Below, in pieces: positions 23,522-64,000 of a DNA stretch of 64,000 bases (its first letter is position 1; every line of letters starts with the position of its first letter). Position numbers and translations under genes: made by a program. The notes beneath the pieces were generated by a model. That model searched no databases, was not told the DNA's origin, and saw nothing but the letters and a program-made list of their open reading frames with translations. Where the stretch lies: NCBI RefSeq assembly GCF_988243305.1, contig NZ_OZ547136.1, one strand, 5' to 3'.

Positions 23522-24172
23522 TTATTCTTTTTTACCTGCCTGACGGAATGTCAGGTTGTAGCGGCAGTCGGTGGTGAGTGGATGAAACCCCGCTTTCAAC
23601 GGTTGAATACCGTGATAAAACAGCCGCGATTCACCGCCCCATACCACCACATCGCCATGTTCCAACAACAAACGTTTTAGCGGATCATTTCGTTTCAGGC
23701 CGCCAAATTGAAAAATCGCGGGTAAGCCCAGAGAAACAGAAACAATCGGCGCGCGCAGATCCGGTTCGTCTTTATCCTGATGCAGCGACAGTTTCGCGCC
23801 AGGAGCGTAGCGGTTGATAAGACAAGCATCTGGCTGGAAATCTGGATAGCCCGCCGCCGTAGCCGCACGTTGACATAAATCATGAAAGCTTTGTGGCATG
23901 GCGGGCCACGGTTTATTTGTTTGCGGATCAATGGGCGAATAGAGATAACCTTGCCGATGGGTCGTCCAGCCCAGATGCCCACAGTTGGTCATCGCCACCG
24001 ACATAGTATATCCCCCGGGGGTGACCATCTGGCGAAACGGCGACTGGCTGGCAACGTCATTAATATCGCGGATCAGTTGCTCCGCAGCATTAAAAGCAAA
24101 ACGCCGTAAAATTACCGCACCAGCCGCCAGTGGCTCTTGCCACGGTTCAGCATCGGCAAACAGATCCAACAT
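23522..24172 (-). CDS. alkB: Alpha-ketoglutarate/Fe(II)-dependent DNA dealkylase AlkB
   Basis: 216-aa ORF immediately downstream of ada with a 1-nt start/stop overlap (ada-alkB operon). Confidence 0.93.
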   Translation of the reverse strand: MLDLFADAEPWQEPLAAGAVILRRFAFNAAEQLIRDINDVASQSPFRQMVTPGGYTMSVAMTNCGHLGWTTHRQGYLYSPIDPQTNKPWPAMPQSFHDLCQRAATAAGYPDFQPDACLINRYAPGAKLSLHQDKDEPDLRAPIVSVSLGLPAIFQFGGLKRNDPLKRLLLEHGDVVVWGGESRLFYHGIQPLKAGFHPLTTDCRYNLTFRQAGKKE

Positions 24173-25236
24173 TACCTCTCCTCATTCTCAGCTTCGCGGC
24201 GCAGCAGTTGCGCTTTACGCGACACGCCCCAGCGGTAACCGGAAAGTGTGCCATCACCACGGACCACCCGATGACAGGGTATTATGATAGCCAGCTTGTT
24301 GGCGGCACAGGCGCTGGCAACGGCCCGTACCGCTTTCGGTTTGCCGATGGCGTTAGCCAGTTGCTGATAACTGACGGTTTCACCGCAAGGTATCGTGCGC
24401 AGTGCCTGCCAGACTTGTTGCTGAAAAGCAGTGCCGCGAATGTCCAGCGGTAACGTCAGCGGCGTATCGCGTTGATTGAGGCTGGCGATCACTTCACGCA
24501 CATGTTGTTGAAACGTCAAATCGGCAGGCGCGTTGTCGGCAGCGGGAAACATCTGCTGCAACTCGCTGATTAATGTCGCGTCATCATCGCCCAGCAATAT
24601 CGCGCAAATCCCCCGCTCGCTTTCTGCCACCAGGCAACGGCCCAGCTCACAATCAGCCAGCGCGTAACGCACCGCCAGATTTTCGCCACCGTGACGGAAT
24701 TGTTTAGCCGTCATGCCCAGCGTTTCGTCAGCTTTGCGGTAGTAACTGTTGCTGTCGGGGAATCCGGCGTTAAGAATAGACGTCGTCACGCTCTCCCCTT
24801 TCGCCAGCGATTCACGCAAACGGCGAGCGCGCCAGGCCTGTTGCCAGGCTTTAGGCGTCATTCCGGTAGTCGCTTTAAACAACCGATGCAGTTGGAACGG
24901 GCTCATCGCCACCTGGTCGGCTAAGGTTTCCAGCGTTACAGGCGTTTCCTGTTCCAGCAGTCGACACGCGTGGGTGATTTTATCCAACCGATGTTGCTGG
25001 GCATTGGCTTTATCGGGTTGGCAGCGTTTGCAGGGGCGAAATCCGGCGGTGAGTGCCTCACTGGCATTTGCGTAGAAGGAGACGTTTTCCCGCAAAGCAT
25101 GTCTGGCGCGGCAAGACGGACGGCAAAAGATGCCTGTGGTGCGCACGGCGAAAACGAATTCGCCGTCGGCATTCGGGTCGCGGGCTAAGACAGATTGCCA
25201 GCGTTGATCGTCAGTTAAGCATGTGGCGTTTTTCAT
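24172..25236 (-). CDS. ada: Bifunctional transcriptional regulator / O6-methylguanine-DNA methyltransferase Ada
   Basis: 354-aa ORF with N-terminal Cys-rich methylphosphotriester domain, AraC-type HTH and C-terminal PCHRV active site. Confidence 0.93.
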   Translation of the reverse strand: MKNATCLTDDQRWQSVLARDPNADGEFVFAVRTTGIFCRPSCRARHALRENVSFYANASEALTAGFRPCKRCQPDKANAQQHRLDKITHACRLLEQETPVTLETLADQVAMSPFQLHRLFKATTGMTPKAWQQAWRARRLRESLAKGESVTTSILNAGFPDSNSYYRKADETLGMTAKQFRHGGENLAVRYALADCELGRCLVAESERGICAILLGDDDATLISELQQMFPAADNAPADLTFQQHVREVIASLNQRDTPLTLPLDIRGTAFQQQVWQALRTIPCGETVSYQQLANAIGKPKAVRAVASACAANKLAIIIPCHRVVRGDGTLSGYRWGVSRKAQLLRREAENEER

Positions 25237-25295
25237 AATCAGCTCCCTGGTTAAGGATAGCCTTTAGTCTGCCCGGTCACCATCGCGCAAAAACC

Positions 25296-25312
25296 AACAA
25301 TCTTGCGCTTTA
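25296..25312 (-). promoter_or_regulatory. Ada box of the ada promoter (AAATTAAAGCGCA on the minus strand)
   Basis: Minus strand reads GAAAAAAATTAAAGCGCAAGATTGTTGG, containing the Ada-box core AAAGCGCA; the box overlaps the apbE stop codon (25310-25312). Confidence 0.65.
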
Positions 25313-26365
25313 ATTTTTTTCGCTGATAAGGAAGCTTTTAAACTGTGGCGACATCCAGGTTTTAAAACTATCGTCTTCTTTGGTGATCATATAAACCGCC
25401 AGCCCTTCCCGACGAACAACCTCTTTGGCTTTCTCCGGCCCCAGTACCATCAAGCCAGTATCCCAGGCATCGGCTTCCAGCGCCGTCGGAGCAATCACCG
25501 TCACGGATACCAGATTGTGTTCGATGGGACGCCCGGTTTGCGGATCGATAACATGAGAAAGACGTTTGCCGTCCAGTTCGTAATAGTTACGGTAGCTGCC
25601 AGAGGTACTAATCCCATGACCGTTGATATCCACCACGGCCTGAACCGCGTTTTCTTTATCGGTTGGTTTTTGAATCGCTACCCGCCACGGCTGGCCTGCA
25701 CCGTTCATACCACGGCTGTTCAGCGCGCCGCCCACCGACACCAGATAGCGGGAAATCCCTTCCTGCTCCATCAAGCGTGCCAGGTGATCCGCCGCATAAC
25801 CTTCACCGACGGTAGAGAGATCGACATATAAATCCGGCAGGTCTTTTTGCAGATATTGCTGGTGGGACTGATTAATCACCGTCAGGTGCTGTAAGCCGGT
25901 TTTGGCTTTCATCGCATCGATCTGTTCCTGGCTCGGAATTTGAACCGGCTGTTGTTCCGGGCCAAAGCCCCACAGATTCACCAGCGGCCCGACGGTTATA
26001 TCCATCGCACCATCGGTCTTCGCGCCAATGCGTAGCGAGGTGGTGACGATATCGGCCATCGCTTCACTTACTGGCCACGGCGACAAACTTTGCGAGTCGT
26101 TAAAGCGCATCAGCGCGGAATCTTTTTTATAGGTCGAAAGCAGCTGATCGTCGGCGTCCAGCTGGGTCTGAATCTTTTCTTTAAGTTCGGCACTGCGTTT
26201 GGCGTCAATGCCCGGGATGCTGGCACGCCAGAAGGTACCCATGGTTTTGCCTTCAAGAACGGTAACTTCAGTAGCGTGGGTTTTGGCGGGTTGTGGTTTT
26301 TGATCGCAACCAACAAAGAAGAGCGCGGCAGCCAGCAGTGCCACGCGGGTAAAGCTTATTTCCAT
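25310..26365 (-). CDS. apbE: FAD:protein FMN transferase ApbE/Ftp (lipoprotein)
   Basis: 351-aa ORF with lipoprotein signal (LFFVGC). Confidence 0.9.
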   Translation of the reverse strand: MEISFTRVALLAAALFFVGCDQKPQPAKTHATEVTVLEGKTMGTFWRASIPGIDAKRSAELKEKIQTQLDADDQLLSTYKKDSALMRFNDSQSLSPWPVSEAMADIVTTSLRIGAKTDGAMDITVGPLVNLWGFGPEQQPVQIPSQEQIDAMKAKTGLQHLTVINQSHQQYLQKDLPDLYVDLSTVGEGYAADHLARLMEQEGISRYLVSVGGALNSRGMNGAGQPWRVAIQKPTDKENAVQAVVDINGHGISTSGSYRNYYELDGKRLSHVIDPQTGRPIEHNLVSVTVIAPTALEADAWDTGLMVLGPEKAKEVVRREGLAVYMITKEDDSFKTWMSPQFKSFLISEKN

Positions 26366-26433
26366 ACGTGATTATCCTCATGCGAACGGTCGCAAGAGTA
26401 CACCAAAAAACTGAGTTTGTACGCTGAAAACAA

Positions 26434-26458
26434 TGAAAAAAGGGCCCGCAGGCCCTTT
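26434..26458 (-). terminator. Rho-independent terminator of ompC
   Basis: Stem AGGGCC/GGCCCT with 4-nt loop; on the minus strand it is followed by TTTTTTCATTG. Confidence 0.8.
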
Positions 26459-26476
26459 GTTCGATATCAATCGAGA

Positions 26477-27619
<1,143 letters not shown>

Positions 27620-27719
27620 TTATATGCCTTTATTTGCTTTTTTATGCCACTGCATACTGATTAACCCTCATTAATCAGTCGGCAAGTCCATTCTCCCCAA
27701 AAATGCAGAATAATCCAAC

Positions 27720-27790
27720 ACGAATATGATACTAAAACTTTTAAGATGTTTCATTTATCGCTATAGATGTTTCAAAATGTAAATGCAAGG
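27720..27790 (-). promoter_or_regulatory. OmpR-binding region of the ompC promoter (C1-like site TTTACATTTTGAAACATCTATAG on the minus strand)
   Basis: Minus-strand sequence of 27761-27786 is GCATTTACATTTTGAAACATCTATAG; a second similar motif (..AAATGAAACATCTTAA) is adjacent. Confidence 0.7.
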
Positions 27791-27938
27791 GAACTTTTTA
27801 AGATTATTGTGGAATGGCGAAATAAGCACCTAACATCAAGCAATAATAATTCAAGGTTAAAATCAATAACTTATTCTTAAGTATTTGACAGCACTGAATG
27901 TCAAAACAAAACCTTCACTCGCAACTAGAATAACTCCC

Positions 27939-28031
27939 GCTATCATCATTAACTTTATTTATTACCGTCATTCATTTCTGAATGTCTGTTTACCCCTATT
28001 TCAACCGGATGCCTCGCATCCGGTTTTTTTT
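27939..28031 (+). ncRNA. micF: MicF antisense small RNA (regulator of ompF), divergent from ompC
   Basis: GCTATCATCATTAACTTTATTTATTACCGTCATTCATTTCTGAATGTCTGTTTACCCC... ending in hairpin CCGGATGCCTCGCATCCGG plus T8; recognised as micF. Putative -10 TAGAAT at 27926-27931. Confidence 0.88.
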
Positions 28032-31682: not shown

Positions 31683-31684
31683 TC

Positions 31685-31848
<164 letters not shown>

Positions 31849-31859
<11 letters not shown>

Positions 31860-42969: not shown

Positions 42970-44619
42970 TTAGTCCATTAATAATTGTCGAGTCAGCGTT
43001 TCGATATAGTTCTCATCAAGCCCGGTGGGATAACCATCAAAGGCCAGGTGCAGATACTCATGGGTTAAATCCAGCCGATCCTGAAGCGTAAAGAAGTTAC
43101 GAATAAACAGCCGTTTCTGCTGCCGATCGGTATAGGGGAAACCTGAGACTAAACGACAGACCGCAAACACGTCTGGTTCGTTGTACCCCGTCTCACCTTG
43201 TAATATACGCCGCCACTGCGGCATTTTTTTCGCCAGCCAGGCTTTCGCTTTGGGTAATAACTGGCAGGTTGAGCGTGGCGCTCCCCAGCGGCTAAGGCTG
43301 TTGTCGGGATAAGCAAACGCGAGTATCTGGTCGTAACGCTCCCCCTGCCCCGCCTGGGCCATGGATTGCCGCCAGGAAAGCGTCCCTTCGGTAGCGCGAC
43401 TGCCGTGATAATGAACCGGATCGCCCGCATAGATGAGATCCTGCGTCCAGGCGGTCATCGTTCGCGCCCCCGTGGTCGCTGGCGAAGCAGAAACACGCTG
43501 CGTGGCGCTGCTGTCGGGGATGGTCAGGCAATCGCCTTCCCGATTGGCGTTTTGCTGTAAAAAAGTGCGAATCGCCACGGTCATGGCTTTCGCTGCCTCA
43601 GGGGGCGTACTTTTCGCCTCGCGATCCAGAACTCTGGCAACGTACTCTTCACGATCGAGATGCGACTGCAATTTCAGTTTGCCCTTTTCGGTCAGTAAGG
43701 TCGTCTCACCGTGGCTGACAAACGTAATGTGGTTACCATTGGCGAACGTCACACGATAGCGCCCATTAAGTACGCCGGGTTTTACTGCCGTCGTACTCTT
43801 TTCCGCTGTGATTTTCTTCAGCGGATAGCGGGCAAACAGCTCCACCTCTACACATTGCCCACTGGCAACCTGCGTCGGCACTGGCAAAACCCGATTAAGC
43901 ACCGTCGCATAACGGGTTAGTACCGTTTTGCTGGTGCCACTGCCAGTAACCCACAGCGGTGAACCATCGGTTAACCAGCCGGCAAAACCACCCTGACGGA
44001 TTTCCTGTTTATCATCGGCAAACCAGCTCCAGGTTTTCACCCGTACCCGACTACCGAGCATGGATGCGACACCGATTTTCGCCTCGTCCAGCACCACATC
44101 CAGTAAGACTTCCTGAGCTTTGTTTTGCGCGGGTAACGTCGCTAATGAATCAAGCAGTGATTTAACCGTTACCGAGGTTTCTGGCTTCAGCGTAGTAAGA
44201 GACGCTAACCACGCAGGTGCCTGACGCTGTTGCCAGTATTGCCCCCACACATCTGCGCTAATATGCAACCGCTGCGGCGCAAAATAGAGCCCACAGGAAC
44301 GTACCAGCGCGGTATCGCGCGTTATGCTCTCCCCAGCCTGACAACAATAAACCTCTTCCGGGGAGTTTCCACGACACTGGTAGGGCTGCTCCGGTTGATG
44401 GGTATCCTCCAGCCAGGCGTAAACATACAGTTTCCACAAACTCCCTAACGGCGTGGTGAGAGTGTCAGGTAATGCTGAGACTTTGGTCACGCCTGATGAC
44501 GACAGCTGATACAGTTGATCGTGCTGCGCACCGCGCAGCACCAGTTGTAACGGCGTCTCCTCCGCAAGCGTTGGCAGAGTAACCAACGCCAATAGCCAGA
44601 CGATTCTGCGCCAGTTCAC
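42970..44619 (-). CDS. yfaQ: Secreted protein of unknown function YfaQ
   Basis: 549-aa ORF with signal peptide; its start codon directly abuts the yfaS stop codon. Confidence 0.85.
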   Translation of the reverse strand: MNWRRIVWLLALVTLPTLAEETPLQLVLRGAQHDQLYQLSSSGVTKVSALPDTLTTPLGSLWKLYVYAWLEDTHQPEQPYQCRGNSPEEVYCCQAGESITRDTALVRSCGLYFAPQRLHISADVWGQYWQQRQAPAWLASLTTLKPETSVTVKSLLDSLATLPAQNKAQEVLLDVVLDEAKIGVASMLGSRVRVKTWSWFADDKQEIRQGGFAGWLTDGSPLWVTGSGTSKTVLTRYATVLNRVLPVPTQVASGQCVEVELFARYPLKKITAEKSTTAVKPGVLNGRYRVTFANGNHITFVSHGETTLLTEKGKLKLQSHLDREEYVARVLDREAKSTPPEAAKAMTVAIRTFLQQNANREGDCLTIPDSSATQRVSASPATTGARTMTAWTQDLIYAGDPVHYHGSRATEGTLSWRQSMAQAGQGERYDQILAFAYPDNSLSRWGAPRSTCQLLPKAKAWLAKKMPQWRRILQGETGYNEPDVFAVCRLVSGFPYTDRQQKRLFIRNFFTLQDRLDLTHEYLHLAFDGYPTGLDENYIETLTRQLLMD

Positions 44620-51508
<6,889 letters not shown>

Positions 51509-51578
51509 AGCAAAACTTTACCGCGCCCTAATACGACAAAAGCCCAGACTTTGCAGCCTGGACTTTTCAATTCAAACA

Positions 51579-51596
51579 AGGGAGATAGCTCCCTTT
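51579..51596 (-). terminator. Putative terminator hairpin downstream of gyrA
   Basis: Stem AAGGGAG/CTCCCTT with 4-nt loop, 19 bp after the gyrA stop; downstream T-run is weak. Confidence 0.5.
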
Positions 51597-51614
51597 TGGC
51601 ATGAAGAAGTAAAA

Positions 51615-54242
51615 TTATTCTTCTTCTGGCTCGTCGTCAACGTCCACTTCCGGAGCGATTTCATCGTCCCCTTCCGCGGCACTGCCGTCGATGGTATCCA
51701 GATCTTCCTCGTCAACCGGTTCAGCAACACGTTGCAGACCCACTACGTTTTCATCTTCCGCAGTACGGATGAGGATCACGCCCTGGGTGTTACGGCCCAC
51801 GATGCTGATTTCCGAAACGCGAGTACGTACCAGCGTACCGGCATCGGTGATCATCATGATCTGGTCGCAGTCATCTACCTGCACCGCGCCAACCACTAAA
51901 CCGTTACGTTCGGTAACCTTGATGGAGATAACCCCTTTCGTCGCACGCGACTTAGTCGGGTATTCCGCCACTGCGGTACGTTTACCATAACCGTTCTGCG
52001 TTGCGGTGAGGATTGCGCCATCGCCACGAGGCACGATCAGAGAGACGACTTTATCGCCTTCGCCTAAACGAATACCGCGAACACCGGTGGTGTTGCAGCC
52101 CATCGCACGGACAGAAGACTCTTTAAAGCGCACCACTTTACCTTCGGCGGAGAACAGCATTACTTCGTCTTCGCCGCTGGTCAGGTCAACGCCGATCAGC
52201 TCATCGCCTTCAACAAGTTTGATCGCCACTTTACCGGCGGTACGCAGACGGTTGAACTCGGTGAGGACAGTTTTCTTCACGGTACCGTTAGCGGTCGCCA
52301 TGAAGACTTTCACGCCCTCTTCAAACTCGGTCACCGGCAGGATGGCAGTGATTCGTTCGTCCTGCTCCAGCGGCAGCAGGTTGACGATCGGACGACCGCG
52401 CGCGCCACGAGTGGCTTCCGGCAACTGATAGACTTTCATCGAATAGACGCGACCACGGCTGGAGAAGCACAGAATATGGTCGTGGGTGTTCGCCACCAGC
52501 AGTCGGTCGATAAAGTCTTCTTCTTTAATACGTGCGGCAGATTTACCTTTCCCGCCACGACGCTGCGCTTCGTATTCAGAAAGCGGCTGATACTTCACGT
52601 AGCCCTGGTGAGAGAGCGTCACGACCACATCTTCCTGAGTGATCAGATCTTCCAGGTTGATGTCGGCGCTGTTGGCGGTGATTTCAGTGCGACGTTTGTC
52701 ACCGAACTGTTCACGAACCAGTTCCAGCTCTTCGCGGATCACTTCCATCAGACGATCGGCACTGCCAAGAATACGCAGCAGTTCTGCGATCTGATCCAGC
52801 AGCTCTTTGTATTCGTCGAGCAGTTTTTCATGCTCAAGGCCGGTCAGTTTCTGCAAACGCAGATCCAGAATCGCCTGAGCTTGCTGTTCGGTCAGGTAGT
52901 ACAGACCATCACGCACACCGAACTCTGGCTCCAGCCATTCCGGACGCGCAGCATCGTCGCCCGCACGTTCCAGCATGGCGGCAACGTTGCCCAGCTGCCA
53001 CGGATTAGCAACCAGCGCAGTTTTCGCTTCTGCAGGCGTCGGCGCATGACGGATCAGTTCGATGATCGGGTCGATGTTCGCCAGCGCCACGGCTAATGCT
53101 TCAAGGATATGAGCACGATCGCGAGCTTTACGCAGTTCGAAAATAGTACGACGGGTCACCACTTCACGGCGGTGACGAACAAACGCCGCGATGATGTCTT
53201 TCAGGTTCATGATCTTCGGCTGACCATGGTGCAATGCCACCATGTTGATACCGAAAGAAACCTGCAACTGGGTCTGGGAGTAGAGGTTGTTAAGCACAAC
53301 TTCACCGACCGCGTCGCGTTTCACTTCAATCACGATGCGCATACCGTCTTTGTCAGACTCGTCACGCAGCGCGCTGATGCCTTCCACGCGTTTTTCTTTT
53401 ACCAGTTCCGCAATCTTCTCGATCAGGCGCGCTTTGTTTACCTGATACGGAATTTCGTGGACGATAATGGTTTCACGTCCGGTTTTTGCGTCAACTTCCA
53501 CTTCGGCACGGGCGCGGATATATACCTTGCCACGACCGGTACGGTAAGCTTCTTCAATACCGCGACGACCGTTAATGATTGCCGCCGTCGGGAAGTCCGG
53601 CCCCGGGATGTGTTCCATCAGCCCTTCAATGCTGATGTCTTCATCATCGATATACGCCAGACAACCGTTGATGACTTCCGTCAGGTTGTGCGGCGGGATG
53701 TTGGTTGCCATACCTACGGCGATACCGGAAGAACCGTTCACCAGCAGGTTAGGAATTTTGGTTGGCATGACGTCGGGAATTTTTTCCGTGCCGTCATAGT
53801 TATCAACGAAATCGACCGTCTCTTTTTCGAGATCGGCCATCAGTTCATGGGCAATTTTCGCCAGACGGATTTCCGTATAACGCATTGCCGCCGCAGAGTC
53901 GCCGTCGATGGAACCGAAGTTACCCTGACCGTCTACCAGCATGTAACGCAGCGAGAATGGCTGCGCCATACGGACGATCGTGTCATAAACCGCCAAGTCA
54001 CCATGGGGATGGTATTTACCGATTACGTCACCAACGACACGGGCAGATTTTTTATAGGCTTTGTTCCAGTCATTGCCTAGTACGTTCATGGCGTAAAGTA
54101 CGCGACGGTGTACCGGCTTCAGGCCATCTCGGACATCCGGCAGCGCACGGCCAACAATGACCGACATCGCATAATCCAGATAGGAGCTCTTCAGCTCTTC
54201 CTCAATGTTGACCGGTGTAATTTCTCTCGCAAGGTCGCTCAT
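51615..54242 (-). CDS. gyrA: DNA gyrase subunit A, carrying S83L in the quinolone resistance-determining region
   Basis: 875-aa [55 protein letters not shown]; QRDR reads [13 protein letters not shown] (codon 83 = TTG). Confidence 0.97.
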
Positions 54243-54284
54243 CTAACCGCTATCCCTCTACTGTATCCCGGATTCAAAGGTCGC

Positions 54285-54293
54285 AAATTATAA
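54285..54293 (-). promoter_or_regulatory. gyrA promoter extended -10 element (TGTTATAAT on the minus strand)
   Basis: Minus-strand TGnTATAAT about 43 bp upstream of the gyrA ATG. Confidence 0.6.
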
Positions 54294-54388
54294 CACAGCC
54301 GCGCAGATTGAGGTAAACCTATACGCTTTATTCACCTCCAATGCCTGATATACTCGTTTGTCTTGCCAATTACGGAGTAGAAGTGCCA

Positions 54389-55111
54389 ATGAATGCCGAA
54401 AAATCGCCGGTAAACCATAACGTAGACCACGAAGAGATCGCTAAATTTGAAGCTGTCGCCTCCCGCTGGTGGGATCTTGAAGGTGAGTTCAAACCGCTGC
54501 ACCGCATTAACCCGCTGCGTCTGGGCTATATTGCCGAGCGTGCTGGCGGTTTATTTGGCAAAAAGGTACTCGATGTCGGTTGTGGCGGCGGCATTCTGGC
54601 CGAGAGTATGGCGCGCGAAGGCGCGACGGTGACCGGTCTGGATATGGGCTTTGAGCCATTGCAGGTGGCAAAGCTGCACGCGCTGGAAAGCGGCATTCAG
54701 GTGGATTACGTGCAGGAAACCGTGGAAGAGCACGCGGCAAAACATGCCGGGCAGTATGATGTGGTGACCTGCATGGAGATGCTGGAGCACGTGCCCGATC
54801 CGCAGTCAGTGGTCAGAGCCTGTGCGCAACTGGTGAAACCGGGCGGCGATGTCTTTTTCTCGACGCTTAACCGCAACGGCAAGTCATGGCTGATGGCGGT
54901 GGTTGGCGCGGAATATATTTTGCGCATGGTGCCCAAAGGCACGCACGACGTGAAGAAATTTATAAAACCGGCAGAACTGCTTGGCTGGGTAGATCAGACA
55001 AGCCTTAAAGAGCGACATATAACCGGGTTACATTACAACCCGATCACTAATACTTTTAAACTCGGCCCCGGCGTCGATGTGAACTATATGCTGCACACGC
55101 AGAATAAATAA
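54389..55111 (+). CDS. ubiG: Ubiquinone biosynthesis O-methyltransferase UbiG
   Basis: 240-aa product [38 protein letters not shown] with SAM-binding motif (VLDVGCGGG); the ORF track starts 16 codons earlier. Confidence 0.93.
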
Positions 55112-55119
55112 AATTGTTA

Positions 55120-55149
55120 GCCGGATAAGGTGCTCGCACCACATCCGGC
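55120..55149. repeat. REP element between convergent ubiG and yfaL
   Basis: GCCGGATAAGGTGCTCGCACCACATCCGGC, a typical REP palindrome. Confidence 0.75.
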
Positions 55150-55171
55150 TACAATGCCGGGCGCAAAGCAG

Positions 55172-58100
55172 CTACCATTTCACCGTCATCGACAAAAACC
55201 CTGCCGTCTGGGCAAAATCATCACTCCCTTTCTGCCACGCCACGTTACCACGCAGGGACACTCGCTGACTGATATTGCCCGTGACTCCCACTTTTATTTC
55301 ACCCCGTTGCTTCACCGCATCGTCACTGATAGTGCTGCCATCTTCTTCAATTTTCGTCGCATGGGGATCGTGATAATAATTCAGATCTAATGTTGGTATG
55401 ACATGAACAGAGGTACGCCATTCGCTGTGTAAACCCAGCCGCGTTTGAATATCATCACCCTGCGATTGTGACACGCGCGCATGGTTAGCGGCGGTAAAAT
55501 CATCCTGCTGCACGCCCTGATAAATCACCTGCGCCTGCGGTTCAACCACCACACCACGCCCCGGTAACCACTGATACCCCGCTTCCAGCGAGGCGATAAT
55601 CCCCGACGAATGGTAATGATCTGTGCCATCGTCTTGTTCGGAAACATCATTGTTAAACCACGCGTATTGCAGCCAGCTATCCAGCCAGGCCCCCTGCTTC
55701 TGATTACCGTGCTGAAACCAGCTTGAGGTCAGACCAACGGCATAACCGTGGTTCTGGTTATCGGCGCGAGTTCCGGTCATATTCGAGCGGCTGTCGCCCT
55801 GGTTATCACTGTAGCCACCAACCGCCCCAAGCATCCACTCGCCATCCGCGCCCCAGCGCCCGCTAAACAAGTCGCCGCTAAGCTGCACCGTAGAAGTGTC
55901 TTCATGCTGAGCCAGTTGCCCCGCTGCTGTGTAATGATAATTTCCGCCGATAACACGTAAATTCAGCGTCTGACCATCGCCACCAGCGTGATCGTGTCGC
56001 TCCATCACAAACGCCTGATTTGCCGCCCGCAGGTTATTAAAATATCCACCAACTTTGGCATTCAACACCGGCTGGTAGGCAGGCGTAGGTTCCGGGTCGG
56101 GTGTTGGATCAGGAGTCGGGTCTGGATCAGGTGGCGATGGTGGCGTTGCTTCTTGCGATCGCAGATACCAGTCGTTGTTATCTTCCACCAGCGTGTAGTC
56201 ATACGCTCCCATATTGACGTAGCCGCTGCCCGCCAGACTGAACTGCGCATTGTTTTGAAATTGCGTTGGATCGGCTGCGAAATCAACCACTTTAATGCCT
56301 GTAGATGTCGGCTCACCAATACCCGTAATGGGATTAATTACCACGGTCGTGTTGCCAGCAGTATTACCGTTCAACACCAGTTGGTCACTTGCCGAGTCAT
56401 CGCCGTTTAATTCGCTATCGAGCAGTAGCGTACCACCGCCGGTATAATCACCGTTTACCGTCAGCGTGTCGCCGGCGACGCCATTTTGCAGGCTGACCGC
56501 ACCGGACGTATTGGTCAGATTGCCATTAACTGTTACGTCGGAAAGATAAGTCAGGCTGTCAGTTTCAAGGTTGGTGTTAAGCTCGCCTGTCAACGTCACG
56601 CCATCGGTGGCATTCACCAGCGTCCCATCGCCGTTAAACAGTGAGGCATTAAGGGCGACGGAAGTATCCTGCCCGGTCAGGCGCAAAACCGTACCATCGC
56701 TGATGTCGATAGTGCCGCTGGAAGTAACATCAATTGACTGAATATCCTGATCCGCGCCAGTCTTGAACGTTGCCCCGCCACCGACCCACAGCGACGAAGC
56801 ATAAGGGAAGATATCCGCAACATCGCCTTGCAGCGTGCCTTCTTCGACACGTACCGCCGACTGCGTCGTACCGCTGGCGGTCAGTTCCAGCGTACCCGCC
56901 CCCGTTTTCGTCAATGTGCTACCCTCATCCTGATGCTGCCCGCTGCTGTCAGCCATCAGTGCGCCCCACTGCGTGTCTACCCCCGCATCAACTGCCACTT
57001 CACCGTCGGCGCGCATTTCAATATCACGCCCATGCTCAGTCGTTGTAGAGCGAGTATCGACATTTGCAGTAATCTCCATCACGCTTTCTTGTTGATTATC
57101 GGTAAAGATAACCTGGCGGTTGTAATGGGTATCTCCAAGCTGCGAGTTGTCGCTCACCACCAGCGTACCGGAAGCGATTTGCGTGGTGCCCAGGTAACTA
57201 TTATTGTTTGCCAGGCTAATCAGCCCGTCGCCCGCATCGACCACCACGTAGACGCCATCTTTCCCGTCGCCGCCGATATGCAAATTGTCGCCACCTGCGA
57301 GATCCACCACATCCTGACTGCCGATAACCGTACCGCCGCTGCCGCTGACTGCAAGGCCATCGTTGTATGATGTGCCGCTCTGCCAGGTGGCGAAATCAGA
57401 GAGATCAAGCACACCGCCGTTTAACACGATCGACTGCGGATCGTCCTGGAGAGCGGCAAGATCTGCCGCGTCGCCTTCCAGCGAAAGCACCGCACCATCA
57501 TCAACGACTATATCGCCAGTTAGCGCCATCGACTGTGCCCCTGCCAGCACGTAGCTGCCGTTTTGCGCAATGGTGAGCTGACCAGCACCTTCGATGGTGC
57601 CAGCAAAACTGCCCTGATTAACAGTAACGTTGCCACCAGCATCGATATTTAAAGTGCCATTCTGAAAGCCCGTCAATGCGTGCACAAAAGTTTGTTGGGT
57701 CGAGCCAACGTTTAGCTCAGCCTGATTCTGATACTGATCAATACTCCCTATCGTCAGACCGTAGCAGTCTTGCGTATCGTCCTGGCAATGCGTATCGCCG
57801 ACATTCATCAGGGAGTTGCTGCGGCCCAGGGTAACTTCACCGTTTTCAATCTGCATCTCGCCAGTAAAGTCATTGTTATCTGCATTAAGTACCAGATCGC
57901 CGGAACCTGTTTTGGTGATTAACCCGGTACCAGCAATAGAGTCAACAGCTCCGTCATTCTCTGTATTGCCGATAACCAGCGTTTTTCCGTCGGCAATATC
58001 AAAGGTAACGTCACTTAAGCCGAGATACATAAAGCCACCCGCCGCAGTGGAAGGACCATCTCCATAGCCTGCTGCGCTATTGTTCTCATCCACTAAAACA

Positions 58101-58900
58101 CCGTTGTTCTGGCTGTAGCTGTCATCAACTGAAATATCAATAAGATAGGGAGCCGTCACGCTATTGGTATAAATCGCCCCGCCATATCCCTCAGCAGAGT
58201 TATTTGTAAATGCGGTGTTATTTATTATTGTGAAACCTGACGGATGCGTGATATCGCTATTATTATCGGTGACATCGATTGCCCCTCCATCGCCATCACT
58301 GTAACTTGTTGATGTATATGCCTGGTTATTGTCAAAAATAACTTCATTTAAATAGACGTCATTGTTGATGGTATAAATTGCACCACCTTTGCCGTCATTA
58401 GCGATGTTATTGCGAAACACGGCGTTAGTGACACGTAAATCGACGACACCGGTATCGTTAGTACCAGAAGAATAGATTGCGCCACCATAGCCACCTGCAA
58501 CGTTACCGGAAAAAATAACATTAGTAAGATTCAGCGTTGAGTTTTCTTTAGCAAATATTGCCCCGCCGTTATTATATTCTCCTGAGACAGTATTATTGGC
58601 AAACAGAGTCATTCCAGTTTCATTTTCTGGCGATAGAGAAAACTCCGCTCCTTGTTGCAAAAATACGGCCCCACCGCTGGCGTTATTAGTCATATCCGAA
58701 AAAACCAGCCATTGCCCATCGGCGATGCTCCAGTCCTGCGTAATGCCTGAAAGGCTTTGCCTGCTGGCGTGACAACTCGCTTTGATATCATATCCCTGAC
58801 ATGAATCAATGACCGCCGCGACACCGTTAGCAGAGAAAAGAGATGCAATCATTGACGGGAGTAAAGATAAATACTCCTTGCGTAGAAAAATAATCCGCAT
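55172..58900 (-). CDS. yfaL: Autotransporter adhesin YfaL (EhaC-like), 1242 codons
   Basis: Large ORF with signal peptide, repetitive Gly/Thr/Asn/Asp-rich passenger domain, Pro-rich linker (PPSPPDPDPTPDPTPDPEPTP) and C-terminal beta-barrel ending ..LSMTVKW. Confidence 0.9.
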   Translation of the reverse strand: MRIIFLRKEYLSLLPSMIASLFSANGVAAVIDSCQGYDIKASCHASRQSLSGITQDWSIADGQWLVFSDMTNNASGGAVFLQQGAEFSLSPENETGMTLFANNTVSGEYNNGGAIFAKENSTLNLTNVIFSGNVAGGYGGAIYSSGTNDTGVVDLRVTNAVFRNNIANDGKGGAIYTINNDVYLNEVIFDNNQAYTSTSYSDGDGGAIDVTDNNSDITHPSGFTIINNTAFTNNSAEGYGGAIYTNSVTAPYLIDISVDDSYSQNNGVLVDENNSAAGYGDGPSTAAGGFMYLGLSDVTFDIADGKTLVIGNTENDGAVDSIAGTGLITKTGSGDLVLNADNNDFTGEMQIENGEVTLGRSNSLMNVGDTHCQDDTQDCYGLTIGSIDQYQNQAELNVGSTQQTFVHALTGFQNGTLNIDAGGNVTVNQGSFAGTIEGAGQLTIAQNGSYVLAGAQSMALTGDIVVDDGAVLSLEGDAADLAALQDDPQSIVLNGGVLDLSDFATWQSGTSYNDGLAVSGSGGTVIGSQDVVDLAGGDNLHIGGDGKDGVYVVVDAGDGLISLANNNSYLGTTQIASGTLVVSDNSQLGDTHYNRQVIFTDNQQESVMEITANVDTRSTTTEHGRDIEMRADGEVAVDAGVDTQWGALMADSSGQHQDEGSTLTKTGAGTLELTASGTTQSAVRVEEGTLQGDVADIFPYASSLWVGGGATFKTGADQDIQSIDVTSSGTIDISDGTVLRLTGQDTSVALNASLFNGDGTLVNATDGVTLTGELNTNLETDSLTYLSDVTVNGNLTNTSGAVSLQNGVAGDTLTVNGDYTGGGTLLLDSELNGDDSASDQLVLNGNTAGNTTVVINPITGIGEPTSTGIKVVDFAADPTQFQNNAQFSLAGSGYVNMGAYDYTLVEDNNDWYLRSQEATPPSPPDPDPTPDPTPDPEPTPAYQPVLNAKVGGYFNNLRAANQAFVMERHDHAGGDGQTLNLRVIGGNYHYTAAGQLAQHEDTSTVQLSGDLFSGRWGADGEWMLGAVGGYSDNQGDSRSNMTGTRADNQNHGYAVGLTSSWFQHGNQKQGAWLDSWLQYAWFNNDVSEQDDGTDHYHSSGIIASLEAGYQWLPGRGVVVEPQAQVIYQGVQQDDFTAANHARVSQSQGDDIQTRLGLHSEWRTSVHVIPTLDLNYYHDPHATKIEEDGSTISDDAVKQRGEIKVGVTGNISQRVSLRGNVAWQKGSDDFAQTAGFLSMTVKW

Positions 58901-59433
58901 ATTAATCTGACCATCATTTTCTATAAGACGGCATATTTAATCGCATTATACGATATGGGTTATTTTTCTTTTGTAAATTGTTCAACCCGGTGCAATGGCT
59001 ATTTTGTTATTATTTCATGAATAATATCAGTGCGTCATAATTCAAGTTAATCACCTTAAGGGATATTAGTTATATTTAAACTGAATTAAAGTAATGAATA
59101 ATTTTCTTATAATATAAGGTAAATTAACAAAATGGCTTCGCATTTAACAATAACCGAAGAGAAAACAACCATTTCGATATCAACAATCGCTTACATTCGC
59201 TTATATATTGACCAGAACTGATACATCAGATTATGTGATGACTCGTGCTTAGATCAATTTTTGCAATCATTAGCCAAAAGATTAATAAACCATCTATATC
59301 AATTTATCTAACCTATTCTTCCGTTCAAGAAATCGCCGAACAGTTATTTTTAACAAATTTTTCTCTTCCCATTGACTTTCCCGGACACCTTGTCTGACCT
59401 AAGGTGCGCGAAAGCCACTTTTTCCTTCCTGAG

Positions 59434-59454
59434 TTATCCACAAAGTTATGCACT
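59434..59454 (+). promoter_or_regulatory. Tandem DnaA boxes upstream of the nrdA promoter
   Basis: TTATCCACA (59434-59442, perfect consensus) and TTATGCACT (59446-59454, 8/9). Confidence 0.8.
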
Positions 59455-59520
59455 TGCAAGAGGGCCATTTTCACACTATCTTGCAGTGAATCCCAAACAT
59501 ACCCCCTATATATAGTGTTC
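59454..59520 (+). promoter_or_regulatory. nrdAB promoter (-35 TTGCAA at 59454-59459, -10 TATCTT at 59477-59482) with putative NrdR boxes
   Basis: Hexamers with 17-bp spacing; partially palindromic elements CACACTATCTTGCAGTG (59473-59489) and CCTATATATAGTGTT (59504-59519) resemble NrdR boxes. Confidence 0.5.
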
Positions 59521-59595
59521 TAAGCAGCTTCCCTCACTACAGGTAGTCTGCATGAAACTATTGCGGAAAGAATTCCAAAAACAGGTACGACATAC

Positions 59596-61881
59596 ATGAA
59601 TCAGAATCTGCTGGTGACAAAGCGCGACGGTAGCACAGAGCGCATCAATCTCGACAAAATCCATCGCGTTCTGGATTGGGCGGCAGAAGGACTGCATAAC
59701 GTTTCGATTTCCCAGGTCGAACTGCGCTCCCACATTCAGTTTTATGACGGTATCAAGACCTCTGACATCCACGAAACCATTATCAAGGCTGCCGCAGACC
59801 TGATCTCCCGTGATGCGCCGGATTATCAGTATCTCGCCGCGCGCCTGGCAATCTTCCACCTGCGTAAAAAAGCCTACGGCCAGTTTGAGCCGCCTGCGCT
59901 GTACGACCACGTGGTGAAAATGGTCGAGATGGGCAAATACGATAATCATCTGCTGGAAGACTACACGGAAGAAGAGTTCAAGCAGATGGACACGTTTATC
60001 GATCACGACCGTGATATGACCTTCTCTTATGCTGCCGTTAAGCAGCTGGAAGGCAAATATCTGGTACAGAACCGCGTGACCGGCGAAATCTACGAAAGCG
60101 CCCAGTTCCTTTATATTCTGGTTGCCGCGTGCCTGTTCTCGAACTACCCGCGTGAAACGCGCCTGCAATACGTGAAGCGTTTTTACGACGCGGTTTCCAC
60201 ATTTAAAATTTCGCTGCCGACGCCAATCATGTCCGGCGTGCGTACCCCGACTCGTCAGTTCAGCTCCTGCGTACTGATCGAGTGCGGTGACAGCCTGGAT
60301 TCCATTAACGCCACCTCCAGCGCGATTGTTAAATACGTTTCCCAGCGTGCCGGGATCGGCATCAATGCCGGGCGTATTCGTGCGCTGGGTAGCCCGATTC
60401 GCGGTGGCGAAGCGTTCCATACCGGTTGTATTCCGTTCTATAAGCATTTCCAGACAGCGGTGAAATCCTGCTCTCAGGGCGGTGTGCGTGGCGGTGCGGC
60501 TACGCTGTTCTACCCGATGTGGCATCTGGAAGTGGAAAGCCTGCTGGTGTTGAAAAACAACCGTGGGGTGGAAGGCAACCGCGTGCGTCACATGGACTAC
60601 GGGGTACAAATCAACAAACTGATGTATACCCGTCTGCTGAAAGGTGAAGATATCACTCTGTTCAGCCCGTCCGACGTACCGGGGTTGTACGACGCGTTCT
60701 TCGCCGATCAGGAAGAGTTTGAACGCCTGTACACCAAATATGAGAAAGACGACAGCATCCGCAAGCAGCGTGTGAAAGCCGTTGAGCTGTTCTCGCTGAT
60801 GATGCAGGAACGTGCGTCTACCGGTCGTATCTATATTCAGAACGTTGACCACTGCAATACCCATAGCCCGTTTGATCCGGCCATCGCGCCAGTGCGCCAG
60901 TCTAACCTGTGCCTGGAAATCGCCCTGCCGACCAAACCGCTGAATGATGTCAACGACGAGAACGGTGAAATCGCGCTGTGTACGCTGTCTGCTTTCAACC
61001 TGGGCGCAATTAATAGCCTGGATGAACTGGAAGAGCTGGCGATTCTGGCGGTACGCGCACTCGACGCGCTGCTGGACTATCAGGATTACCCGATCCCGGC
61101 CGCCAAACGTGGAGCGATGGGTCGTCGTACGCTGGGTATTGGTGTGATCAACTTCGCTTACTACCTGGCGAAGCACGGTAAACGCTACTCCGACGGCAGC
61201 GCCAACAACCTGACGCATAAAACCTTCGAAGCCATTCAGTATTACCTGCTGAAAGCCTCTAATGAGCTGGCGAAAGAGCAAGGCGCGTGCCCGTGGTTTA
61301 ACGAAACCACTTACGCGAAAGGGATCCTGCCGATCGATACCTATAAGAAAGATCTGGATGCCATCGCTAATGAGCCGCTGCATTACGACTGGGAAGCACT
61401 GCGTGAGTCAATCAAAACGCACGGCCTGCGTAACTCCACGCTTTCTGCCCTGATGCCGTCCGAGACCTCTTCGCAGATCTCTAACGCCACTAACGGTATT
61501 GAACCGCCGCGCGGTTACGTCAGCATCAAAGCGTCGAAAGACGGTATTCTCCGCCAGGTGGTGCCTGACTACGAGCATCTGCACGACGCCTATGAGCTGC
61601 TGTGGGAAATGCCGGGTAACGATGGCTACCTGCAACTGGTGGGTATCATGCAGAAATTTATCGATCAGTCGATCTCTGCTAACACCAACTACGATCCGTC
61701 ACGCTTCCCGTCAGGAAAAGTGCCGATGCAGCAACTGCTGAAAGACCTGCTCACCGCCTACAAATTCGGGGTCAAAACGCTGTATTATCAGAACACCCGT
61801 GACGGTGCTGAAGACGCACAAGACGATCTGGTGCCGTCAATCCAGGACGATGGCTGCGAAAGCGGCGCATGCAAGATCTGA
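59596..61881 (+). CDS. nrdA: Class Ia ribonucleoside-diphosphate reductase alpha subunit NrdA
   Basis: 761-aa ORF MNQNLLVTKRDGSTERINLDKIHRVLDWAAEGL with ATP-cone and catalytic cysteines. Confidence 0.97.
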   Translation: MNQNLLVTKRDGSTERINLDKIHRVLDWAAEGLHNVSISQVELRSHIQFYDGIKTSDIHETIIKAAADLISRDAPDYQYLAARLAIFHLRKKAYGQFEPPALYDHVVKMVEMGKYDNHLLEDYTEEEFKQMDTFIDHDRDMTFSYAAVKQLEGKYLVQNRVTGEIYESAQFLYILVAACLFSNYPRETRLQYVKRFYDAVSTFKISLPTPIMSGVRTPTRQFSSCVLIECGDSLDSINATSSAIVKYVSQRAGIGINAGRIRALGSPIRGGEAFHTGCIPFYKHFQTAVKSCSQGGVRGGAATLFYPMWHLEVESLLVLKNNRGVEGNRVRHMDYGVQINKLMYTRLLKGEDITLFSPSDVPGLYDAFFADQEEFERLYTKYEKDDSIRKQRVKAVELFSLMMQERASTGRIYIQNVDHCNTHSPFDPAIAPVRQSNLCLEIALPTKPLNDVNDENGEIALCTLSAFNLGAINSLDELEELAILAVRALDALLDYQDYPIPAAKRGAMGRRTLGIGVINFAYYLAKHGKRYSDGSANNLTHKTFEAIQYYLLKASNELAKEQGACPWFNETTYAKGILPIDTYKKDLDAIANEPLHYDWEALRESIKTHGLRNSTLSALMPSETSSQISNATNGIEPPRGYVSIKASKDGILRQVVPDYEHLHDAYELLWEMPGNDGYLQLVGIMQKFIDQSISANTNYDPSRFPSGKVPMQQLLKDLLTAYKFGVKTLYYQNTRDGAEDAQDDLVPSIQDDGCESGACKI

Positions 61882-61910
61882 TAATCCCCCAGCCTTTGCA
61901 CCAAACCGTC

Positions 61911-61933
61911 CCCTCTCCCCTTGCGGGAGAGGG
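61911..61933 (+). other. GC-rich stem-loop in the nrdA-nrdB intercistronic spacer
   Basis: 9-bp perfect stem CCCTCTCCC/GGGAGAGGG with loop CTTGC; no downstream T-run, so not a canonical terminator. Confidence 0.6.
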
Positions 61934-61969
61934 TTAGGGTGAGGGGTAATAAAACCACAGGACACATTC

Positions 61970-63100
61970 ATGGCATATACCACCTTTTCACAGACGAAAA
62001 ATGATCAGCTCAAAGAACCGATGTTCTTTGGTCAGCCGGTCAACGTGGCTCGCTACGATCAGCAAAAATATGACATCTTCGAAAAGCTGATCGAAAAGCA
62101 GCTCTCTTTCTTCTGGCGTCCGGAAGAAGTTGACGTTTCTCGTGACCGTATCGATTACCAGGCACTGCCTGAACACGAAAAACACATCTTTATCAGCAAC
62201 CTGAAATATCAGACGCTGCTGGACTCCATTCAGGGTCGCAGCCCGAACGTGGCACTGCTGCCGCTGATCTCGATCCCTGAACTGGAAACCTGGGTCGAAA
62301 CCTGGGCGTTCTCAGAAACCATTCACTCTCGTTCTTATACCCATATCATTCGTAATATCGTTAACGATCCGTCCGTTGTGTTTGATGATATCGTCACCAA
62401 CGAGCAGATCCAGAAACGTGCGGAAGGGATCTCCAGTTATTACGATGAGCTGATCGAAATGACCAGCTACTGGCATCTGCTGGGCGAAGGTACCCACACC
62501 GTTAACGGTAAAACCGTAACCGTTAGCCTGCGCGAGCTGAAGAAAAAACTGTATCTCTGCCTGATGAGCGTTAACGCGCTGGAAGCGATCCGCTTCTACG
62601 TCAGCTTTGCTTGTTCCTTTGCCTTTGCAGAACGCGAACTGATGGAAGGTAACGCCAAAATTATTCGCCTGATTGCCCGCGACGAAGCCCTGCACCTGAC
62701 CGGTACTCAGCATATGCTGAATCTGCTGCGCAGCGGTGCGGATGATCCGGAGATGGCGGAAATTGCCGAAGAATGTAAGCAGGAGTGCTATGACCTGTTT
62801 GTCCAGGCGGCACAGCAAGAGAAAGACTGGGCGGATTATCTGTTCCGCGACGGTTCGATGATTGGTCTGAATAAAGACATTCTCTGCCAGTACGTTGAAT
62901 ACATCACCAATATCCGCATGCAGGCAGTCGGTTTGGATCTGCCGTTCCAGACGCGCTCCAACCCGATCCCGTGGATCAATACCTGGCTGGTGTCTGATAA
63001 CGTGCAGGTTGCTCCGCAGGAAGTGGAAGTCAGTTCTTATCTGGTCGGGCAGATTGACTCGGAAGTGGACACCGACGATTTGAGTAACTTCCAGCTCTGA
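61970..63100 (+). CDS. nrdB: Class Ia ribonucleotide reductase beta subunit NrdB
   Basis: 376-aa [58 protein letters not shown]. Confidence 0.97.
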
Positions 63101-63354
63101 TGGCTCGCGTTACCCTGCGCATCACTGGCACACAACTGCTGTGCCAGGATGAACACCCTTCCCTTCTGGCGGCGCTGGAATCCCACAATGTGGCGGTTGA
63201 GTACCAGTGCCGCGAAGGTTACTGCGGTTCCTGTCGCACGCGCCTTGTTGCAGGCCAGGTGGACTGGATTGCCGAACCGTTAGCCTTTATTCAGCCGGGG
63301 GAAATTTTGCCTTGTTGTTGCCGGGCAAAAGGCGATATTGAAATCGAGTTGTGA
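63100..63354 (+). CDS. yfaE: 2Fe-2S ferredoxin YfaE (NrdB maintenance)
   Basis: 84-aa ORF with ferredoxin cysteine pattern (CREGYCGSC ... CCC); 1-nt overlap with the nrdB stop. Confidence 0.92.
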   Translation: MARVTLRITGTQLLCQDEHPSLLAALESHNVAVEYQCREGYCGSCRTRLVAGQVDWIAEPLAFIQPGEILPCCCRAKGDIEIEL

Positions 63355-63366
63355 TCGGGTACTAGC

Positions 63367-63398
63367 GCCAGATACGACGCTTACGCGTATTATCTGGC
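63367..63398. repeat. REP-like palindrome / putative bidirectional terminator between yfaE and inaA
   Basis: GCCAGATA ... TATCTGGC inverted repeat (8-bp arms, 16-nt loop). Confidence 0.5.
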
Positions 63399-63407
63399 CT
63401 ACAACGA

Positions 63408-64000
63408 TTACATGGCGTAGTAATACGCTTTCACCTGCTCCCAGTCCGCTTTGGGGATCGGCTCCAGATATTTTTCCAGCTGGCGGAAGTCATGATTAAT
63501 CGCTTTATCGCGACGCAAGCGGCGACGACTTTTCTCCAGATCAAGAAATCCAGCTTCTGCCTTACCTTCTGTTTTCACATAGATATGGCGAACATAGCAA
63601 CAGCCATGCTGACGATTAACGCTATGCATTTTCTTAAACGCCAGCGCCACTGCTTTCAACATGGCTTGCCGTACTTCGTCAGAATAGGGCGTTACTGCAT
63701 GCCGGGCATACCAGTCAGCAATGCTGATGAACCCCGCCATATCTTCAGTCACCAGCAACGCGCGCCATTCCCCCTCAATTTTCACCGCTTCACCAAAAAC
63801 AATCTTCGGCACGATGACACCAGCCCGTTCCAGTTCTTTAATTACCGCAACCTCACGGACAATCGTTGGTCGGCCGAACGGATAACGTACGGAATGAAAC
63901 AGATGATGCGTCATGCGCTTTACATATAGCTTTTTGCCGTTGCGCTCGACGCATTGCACCCCGCTCATACCATTACGGCGATAGTTAGGCTCTTCAACCC
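63408..64000 (-). CDS. inaA: Acid-inducible putative lipopolysaccharide kinase InaA; N-terminus lies beyond window end
   Basis: Minus-strand ORF open to the window edge; visible portion ..MSGVQCVERNGKKLYVKRMTHHLFHSVRYPFGRPTIVREV ... KAYYYAM recognised as InaA. Confidence 0.88.
   Translation of the reverse strand, partial: VEEPNYRRNGMSGVQCVERNGKKLYVKRMTHHLFHSVRYPFGRPTIVREVAVIKELERAGVIVPKIVFGEAVKIEGEWRALLVTEDMAGFISIADWYARHAVTPYSDEVRQAMLKAVALAFKKMHSVNRQHGCCYVRHIYVKTEGKAEAGFLDLEKSRRRLRRDKAINHDFRQLEKYLEPIPKADWEQVKAYYYAM

Follow-up and report, generated by a model that had tools for sequence, protein, structure and literature searches.

The DNA analysed here is a 64-kb stretch (hereafter the window) of the Escherichia coli chromosome, in which the gene for DNA gyrase subunit A (gyrA) encodes leucine instead of serine at codon 83. 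This S83L substitution is real and correctly read, and it is a textbook case of quinolone resistance. Its best explanation, to which we give a probability of about 0.86, is a single C-to-T change (TCG to TTG) that most likely took place in the lineage to which the strain belongs and has been retained because the strain, or a recent ancestor, was exposed to quinolones. Assemblies of the same lineage with the resistant and with the susceptible codon are one base apart over long stretches around the gene, and the 11.1-kb tract in which gyrA lies, different in ancestry from its flanks, is found in both.

Identification of gyrA

The following open reading frame was taken from the ORF list of the window.

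51615..54242, minus strand: gyrA CDS, DNA gyrase subunit A, ATG start, 875 codons plus stop

This ORF is gyrA. Its product matched the NCBIfam equivalog TIGR01063 over residues 8-840 with 1307.9 bits (cut-off 877), whereas its score against parC_Gneg, 579.1 bits, was under the cut-off of 628.9. The catalytic Tyr122 (E. coli numbering) is kept in the translation SAAAM-R121-Y122-TEIRL, and the gene order yfaA-gyrA-ubiG is that of K-12, DG341-1, PK8275 and Ecol_545. The gene was matched in 5,425 of the 5,426 complete E. coli genomes, and the matches are annotated as gyrA in RefSeq.

Codon 83 and other differences from K-12

The gene was compared codon by codon with gyrA of K-12 MG1655 (b2231); both are 2628 nt long and align without gaps. 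A sequence-only reading had counted codon 83 from an ATG at 54242, had excluded a frame miscount, and had reported TTG in place of TCG beside wild-type Asp82, Ala84 and Asp87. The comparison bore this out in every respect. The start agrees with the ORF list and places the first base of codon 83 at 53996 (54242 minus 246), the equal and ungapped lengths exclude a shift of frame, and the codon alignment gave the changed and the unchanged codons as they had been read. The features of the gene and of its upstream region are as follows.

53996..53994, minus strand: codon 83, TTG (Leu), TCG (Ser) in K-12; a C-to-T change on the coding strand at 53995
53982..53984, minus strand: codon 87, GAC (Asp), wild type in the codon comparison with K-12
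53925..54044, minus strand: QRDR, codons 67-106, protein identical to K-12 except at residue 83
52211..52209, minus strand: codon 678, GAA (Glu), GAC (Asp) in K-12; D678E, outside the QRDR
54243..54340, minus strand: gyrA upstream region, two base differences from K-12, at 54336 and 54307

The coding-strand sequence around codon 83 is cat ccc cat ggt gac TTG gcg gtt tat gac acg atc gtc, and the adjacent K-12 codons, GAC for Asp82 and GCG for Ala84, are kept. Codons 67-106 are the established QRDR limits of E. coli gyrA. No second gyrA change was found at Asp87 in the comparison with K-12, and the gyrA of the window is thus a single (first-step) mutant. Over the whole gene, 50 nucleotides differ from K-12 (98.1% identity), and of the codons concerned 48 are synonymous and two, S83L and D678E, are non-synonymous. 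Judged from this ratio, purifying selection on gyrA is strong.

The second amino-acid difference, D678E, is a lineage polymorphism, useful as a marker and without a role in resistance. It is also present in the susceptible form of the allele, carried by at least 60 complete genomes, and in a susceptible sibling of the strain (GCA_029483465.1). It is known from ST405, ST38, ST448 and ST1193 isolates, including one ST38 isolate without a QRDR mutation (PMC10638923).

Upstream of the gene, the TATAAT hexamer at 54292..54287 is the same as in K-12. The differences at 54336 and 54307 are common to the susceptible D-type genome DG341-1 (L002) and to the susceptible siblings GCA_958430705.1 and GCA_033742755.1. 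Since both occur in susceptible genomes they are unlinked to resistance, and the upstream changes were dismissed as candidates for a resistance-related effect.

Mechanism and expected phenotype

The mechanism proposed for this allele is taken from published work. The two anchors of the bridge are Ser83 and Asp87, and even with 500 uM ciprofloxacin, purified E. coli gyrase with GyrA-S83L gives only about half as much drug-induced cleavage as the wild type (PMC9917921). An alanine at this position (S83A) does not confer resistance, so that leucine works mainly via steric hindrance (PMC9917921). In the strain studied here, the bulky Leu83 would accordingly be expected to break the Ser83 contact of the bridge and to leave far fewer drug-stabilised cleavage complexes; the second anchor, Asp87, is intact.

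The phenotype to be expected from published work is nalidixic-acid resistance with low-level fluoroquinolone resistance, at a ciprofloxacin MIC of about 0.25-0.5 mg/L. In an isogenic MG1655 background, the ciprofloxacin MIC was 0.38 mg/L with S83L and 0.016 mg/L without it (a 24-fold rise), the mutant having a relative fitness of 1.01, and the high level of 32 mg/L required S83L together with D87N and parC S80I (PMC2714960). The substitution is described as a first step that gives low-level fluoroquinolone resistance and that is revealed by nalidixic acid (PMC10376670), and under ciprofloxacin it beats other gyrA alleles (PMC5400412). Its description in the sequence-only reading as the commonest first-step mutation agrees with this literature (PMC5400412, PMC10376670, PMC2714960).

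The window allele is like that of LM378, the isogenic gyrA S83L strain of Marcusson et al. 2009 (PMC2714960), in that the same TCG-to-TTG change is the sole amino-acid change of the QRDR and Asp87 is intact. The two differ in their background, which is that of K-12 in LM378, whereas the window allele has 48 synonymous codon differences from it and D678E.

For annotation purposes, the genotype supports describing the strain as resistant to nalidixic acid and less susceptible to fluoroquinolones, and places it one or two mutations short of clinical ciprofloxacin resistance. The usual path leads from gyrA S83L to parC S80I and then to gyrA D87N. The actual fluoroquinolone resistance level of the strain could be much higher, as the window does not include parC, parE, marR, acrR, soxR or any plasmid genes. 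Within the window no other quinolone-resistance determinant was found, and it follows the chromosomal backbone of Ecol_545 with no inserted island. The case leaves the understanding of gyrase and of quinolone resistance unchanged.

Resistant and susceptible members of the same lineage

Draft assemblies of the lineage were recovered by exact-protein look-up with the YfaL and YfaQ proteins of the window. The assembly collection lists the exact YfaL protein in 171 blocks. YfaQ, whose gene straddles the left boundary of the 11.1-kb tract around gyrA (44260-55353, see below), was discarded as a lineage-specific probe since it was unspecific (303 blocks, including D-type genomes); the loci that it recovered were still of use. 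The assemblies that bear on codon 83 are the following.

L006, GCA_012474415.1: codon 83 TTG, no difference from the window over 45172-64000
L009, GCA_042520255.1: codon 83 TTG, no difference from the window over 32970-54619
L007, GCA_029483465.1: codon 83 TCG, identical to the window over 45172-64000 (18.8 kb) save 53995
L008, GCA_958430705.1: codon 83 TCG, identical to the window over 44260-54619 save 53995; two more differences in the left flank (11.3 kb compared)
L012, GCA_033742755.1: codon 83 TCG, three differences from the window in the tract

The TTG and TCG isolates thus form an unusually clean natural isogenic pair, with one base between them over about 19-22 kb, and this pair documents that the mutation arose on the allele which the lineage already had. 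The complete TTG allele of the window is 100% identical to gyrA of 29 complete genomes. When reverted to TCG, it is 100% identical to gyrA in at least 60 complete genomes, one of them labelled ST69. A single base thus separates the resistant allele from a common susceptible one. The most probable course of events would be a single C-to-T transition at 53995 on the susceptible allele of the lineage itself, after which TTG would have been retained through quinolone selection in the strain or in a recent ancestor.

Three queries with flanking sequence against the 5,426 complete RefSeq E. coli genomes gave no match above 99.0-99.2%, and the source lineage is sampled as drafts, none of the complete genomes in the collection being close to it.

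Another draft of the lineage, GCA_017598645.1 (L011), follows the window in the left flank and departs from it there at one site in 11.3 kb. Between 53229 and at least 54583 it carries another haplotype, with wild-type TCG and with 14 differences from the window besides 53995. The switched region takes in the 5' third of gyrA, where the QRDR lies, as well as the promoter and ubiG. None of the compared genomes matches this donor haplotype, the nearest being Ecol_545 with 8 differences. This switch marks a second breakpoint of recombination in the lineage of the window, and it falls inside gyrA.

A mosaic tract around gyrA and possible import of the allele

The tract from 44260 to 55353 (11,094 bp) contains the 5' part of yfaQ, the alpha-2-macroglobulin gene, yfaT, yfaA, gyrA, ubiG and the 3' end of yfaL. 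Over its length the window differs at only two positions, 49375 and 53995, from the susceptible genome DG341-1, and at eight from PK8275 (L003), which carries S83L; six of the eight lie in 45232-45469 and another at 48658. DG341-1 and PK8275 differ from each other at eight sites inside the tract, and PK8275-type genomes equal the window at every base from 49376 to 55353, TTG included. The flanks differ from the phylogroup-D-type genomes by 1.0% on the left and 1.5% on the right. Were the tract as divergent as the flanks, it would show about 130 differences (Poisson P about 3e-53). Ecol_545 differs from the window by 2.4% within the tract, so that the near-identity with D-type genomes is not plain conservation. 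By these comparisons, the tract is a mosaic produced by homologous recombination, and a window haplotype 2 differences from DG341-1 and 8 from PK8275 suggests import into the lineage of the window.

Across the species, the yfaQ-gyrA region as a whole is a patchwork in which breakpoints are numerous. Five other loci that share YfaQ with the window (L010 and L013-L016, compared over 32970-54619) differ from it by 0.2-0.35% in the left flank and depart from it inside the tract at about 44542, 45679, 47499 and 50159. The alpha-2-macroglobulin gene yfaS (44620-49239, minus strand) is an intact ORF of 1539 codons in the window, and the copy of K-12 MG1655 (b4500) is annotated as a pseudogene.

The position of gyrA in this tract raises an alternative, namely that the S83L allele was brought in by homologous recombination from a phylogroup-D-type donor which already carried it, as in ST1193. 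We regard this as unlikely. It would fit the near-identity with D-type genomes between flanks that are 1.0-1.5% different, the presence of the exact TTG allele in 29 complete genomes, and the mosaic structure of the region in many genomes, with a breakpoint within gyrA in L011. There is also a documented precedent in ST1193, which acquired gyrA and parC alleles by recombination (PMC13127887). However, the tract is present with TCG in the susceptible siblings L007, L008 and L012, which are one to three differences from the window including 53995, and it must therefore have been there before the lineage became resistant. A tract of foreign ancestry that delivered resistance would be missing from the susceptible members of the recipient lineage, and all three have it. 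The window tract is also nearest to susceptible haplotypes, with bit scores of 19486 for the susceptible M7424 and DG341-1 against 19453 for the S83L-carrying 118UI and PK8275. The six sites in 45232-45469 and the one at 48658 separate it from PK8275, and 53995 comes without a linked donor SNP. The tract was therefore rejected as the carrier of S83L, since susceptible members of the same lineage have it and its closest haplotypes are susceptible.

Import could also have taken the form of a short replacement from a D-type donor, which would be traceless because the earlier 11-kb exchange had made the two base-identical. We consider this improbable as well. If it were true, an older recombination tract would have served as a landing pad on which a resistance allele could later pass from one lineage to another without leaving a trace.

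The comparison with ST1193 holds in so far as gyrA of the window is enclosed in a tract that does not share the ancestry of the flanks. It fails in that the window tract is also found in susceptible siblings, hence was not the deliverer of resistance, and in that ST1193 has a triple genotype whereas the window has one gyrA change. The D-type genomes with S83L (118UI, NMBU-W13E19, PK8275 and others, 29 genomes) have a 2628-nt gyrA 100% identical to that of the window, TTG included. They are 1.0-1.5% from the window outside 44260-55353 and differ from it at 8 sites inside. They are therefore a different lineage with the same allele, in which S83L most likely had an independent origin.

Frequency of S83L and selection

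Mutation within the lineage remains the preferred reading, and the frequency of the substitution in the species bears on its second part, the retention by quinolone exposure. Exact 30-mers around codon 83 were counted among the 5,426 complete E. coli genomes. The TTG 30-mer was found in 2,294 genomes (42%) and the TCG 30-mer in 2,767 (51%). Leu83 with Asp87 occurs on at least two synonymous backgrounds, with codon 85 either GTT (n = 412) or GTC (n = 72). At least 484 genomes therefore have a single mutant gyrA like that of the window; they make up about 9% of the total and 21% of the Leu83 carriers. The recurrence of Leu83 on several backgrounds, together with its very recent appearance in the lineage, argues for repeated positive selection and not for drift.

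The sequence-only reading had concluded that the strain had probably been under quinolone selection. Selection itself is upheld, and its restriction to this strain is not. A recent ancestor is equally meant, because the allele occurs with its flanks in other assemblies of the lineage and has no measurable fitness cost. Being cost-free, S83L can persist after exposure, and selection may thus have acted on an ancestor.

It is very unlikely that Leu83 is a neutral natural polymorphism unrelated to drug exposure. Drift is possible in principle for a substitution without a measurable fitness cost, and D678E is such a polymorphism in the same gene, but gyrA is subject to strong purifying selection, S83L recurs on differing synonymous backgrounds, the two states in the lineage are one base apart, which points to a very recent change, and S83L wins ciprofloxacin competition experiments (PMC5400412). 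The last doubt, raised by the sequence-only reading itself, was that the T at 53995 (coding strand) might be a sequencing or assembly error; only one base is concerned, but this can practically be dismissed, as the same base is present in the independent lineage assemblies GCA_012474415.1 and GCA_042520255.1, 29 complete genomes have exactly this allele over its full length, and it would be remarkable for an error to fall by chance on the single most selected base of gyrA.

One record labelled as a plasmid in the E. coli genome collection contains a full-length gyrA with the TTG (Leu83) 30-mer, and the remaining copies are all chromosomal. This record may be a mislabelled or misassembled replicon.

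Other features of the window

The 64-kb window spans yejK to inaA and is collinear with Ecol_545 throughout. It contains no MLST genes, and scans with Rfam and for tRNAs detected only MicF, a REP-type naRNA and tRNA-Pro. The segment 24001-28000 (ada, apbE and ompC) differs from Ecol_545 by 5.3-6.7% (106 and 133 differences per 2 kb), and elsewhere on the left the difference is ~0.5-1.5%. The OmpC protein of the window has 375 aa, and the MicF RNA lies just upstream of its gene, at 27938-28031. The ompC gene is known to be hypervariable, which fits the divergence of 24001-28000.

Two spacers differ in length between genomes. In the nrdA-nrdB spacer (61883-61957) an unaligned stretch measures ~74 bp in the window versus ~219 bp in DG341-1, and the rcsB/rcsC spacer has an indel at 31684-31689 which adjoins a match to the REP-type naRNA4 at 31773-31849. 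Both length differences are probably due to the gain or loss of REP elements.
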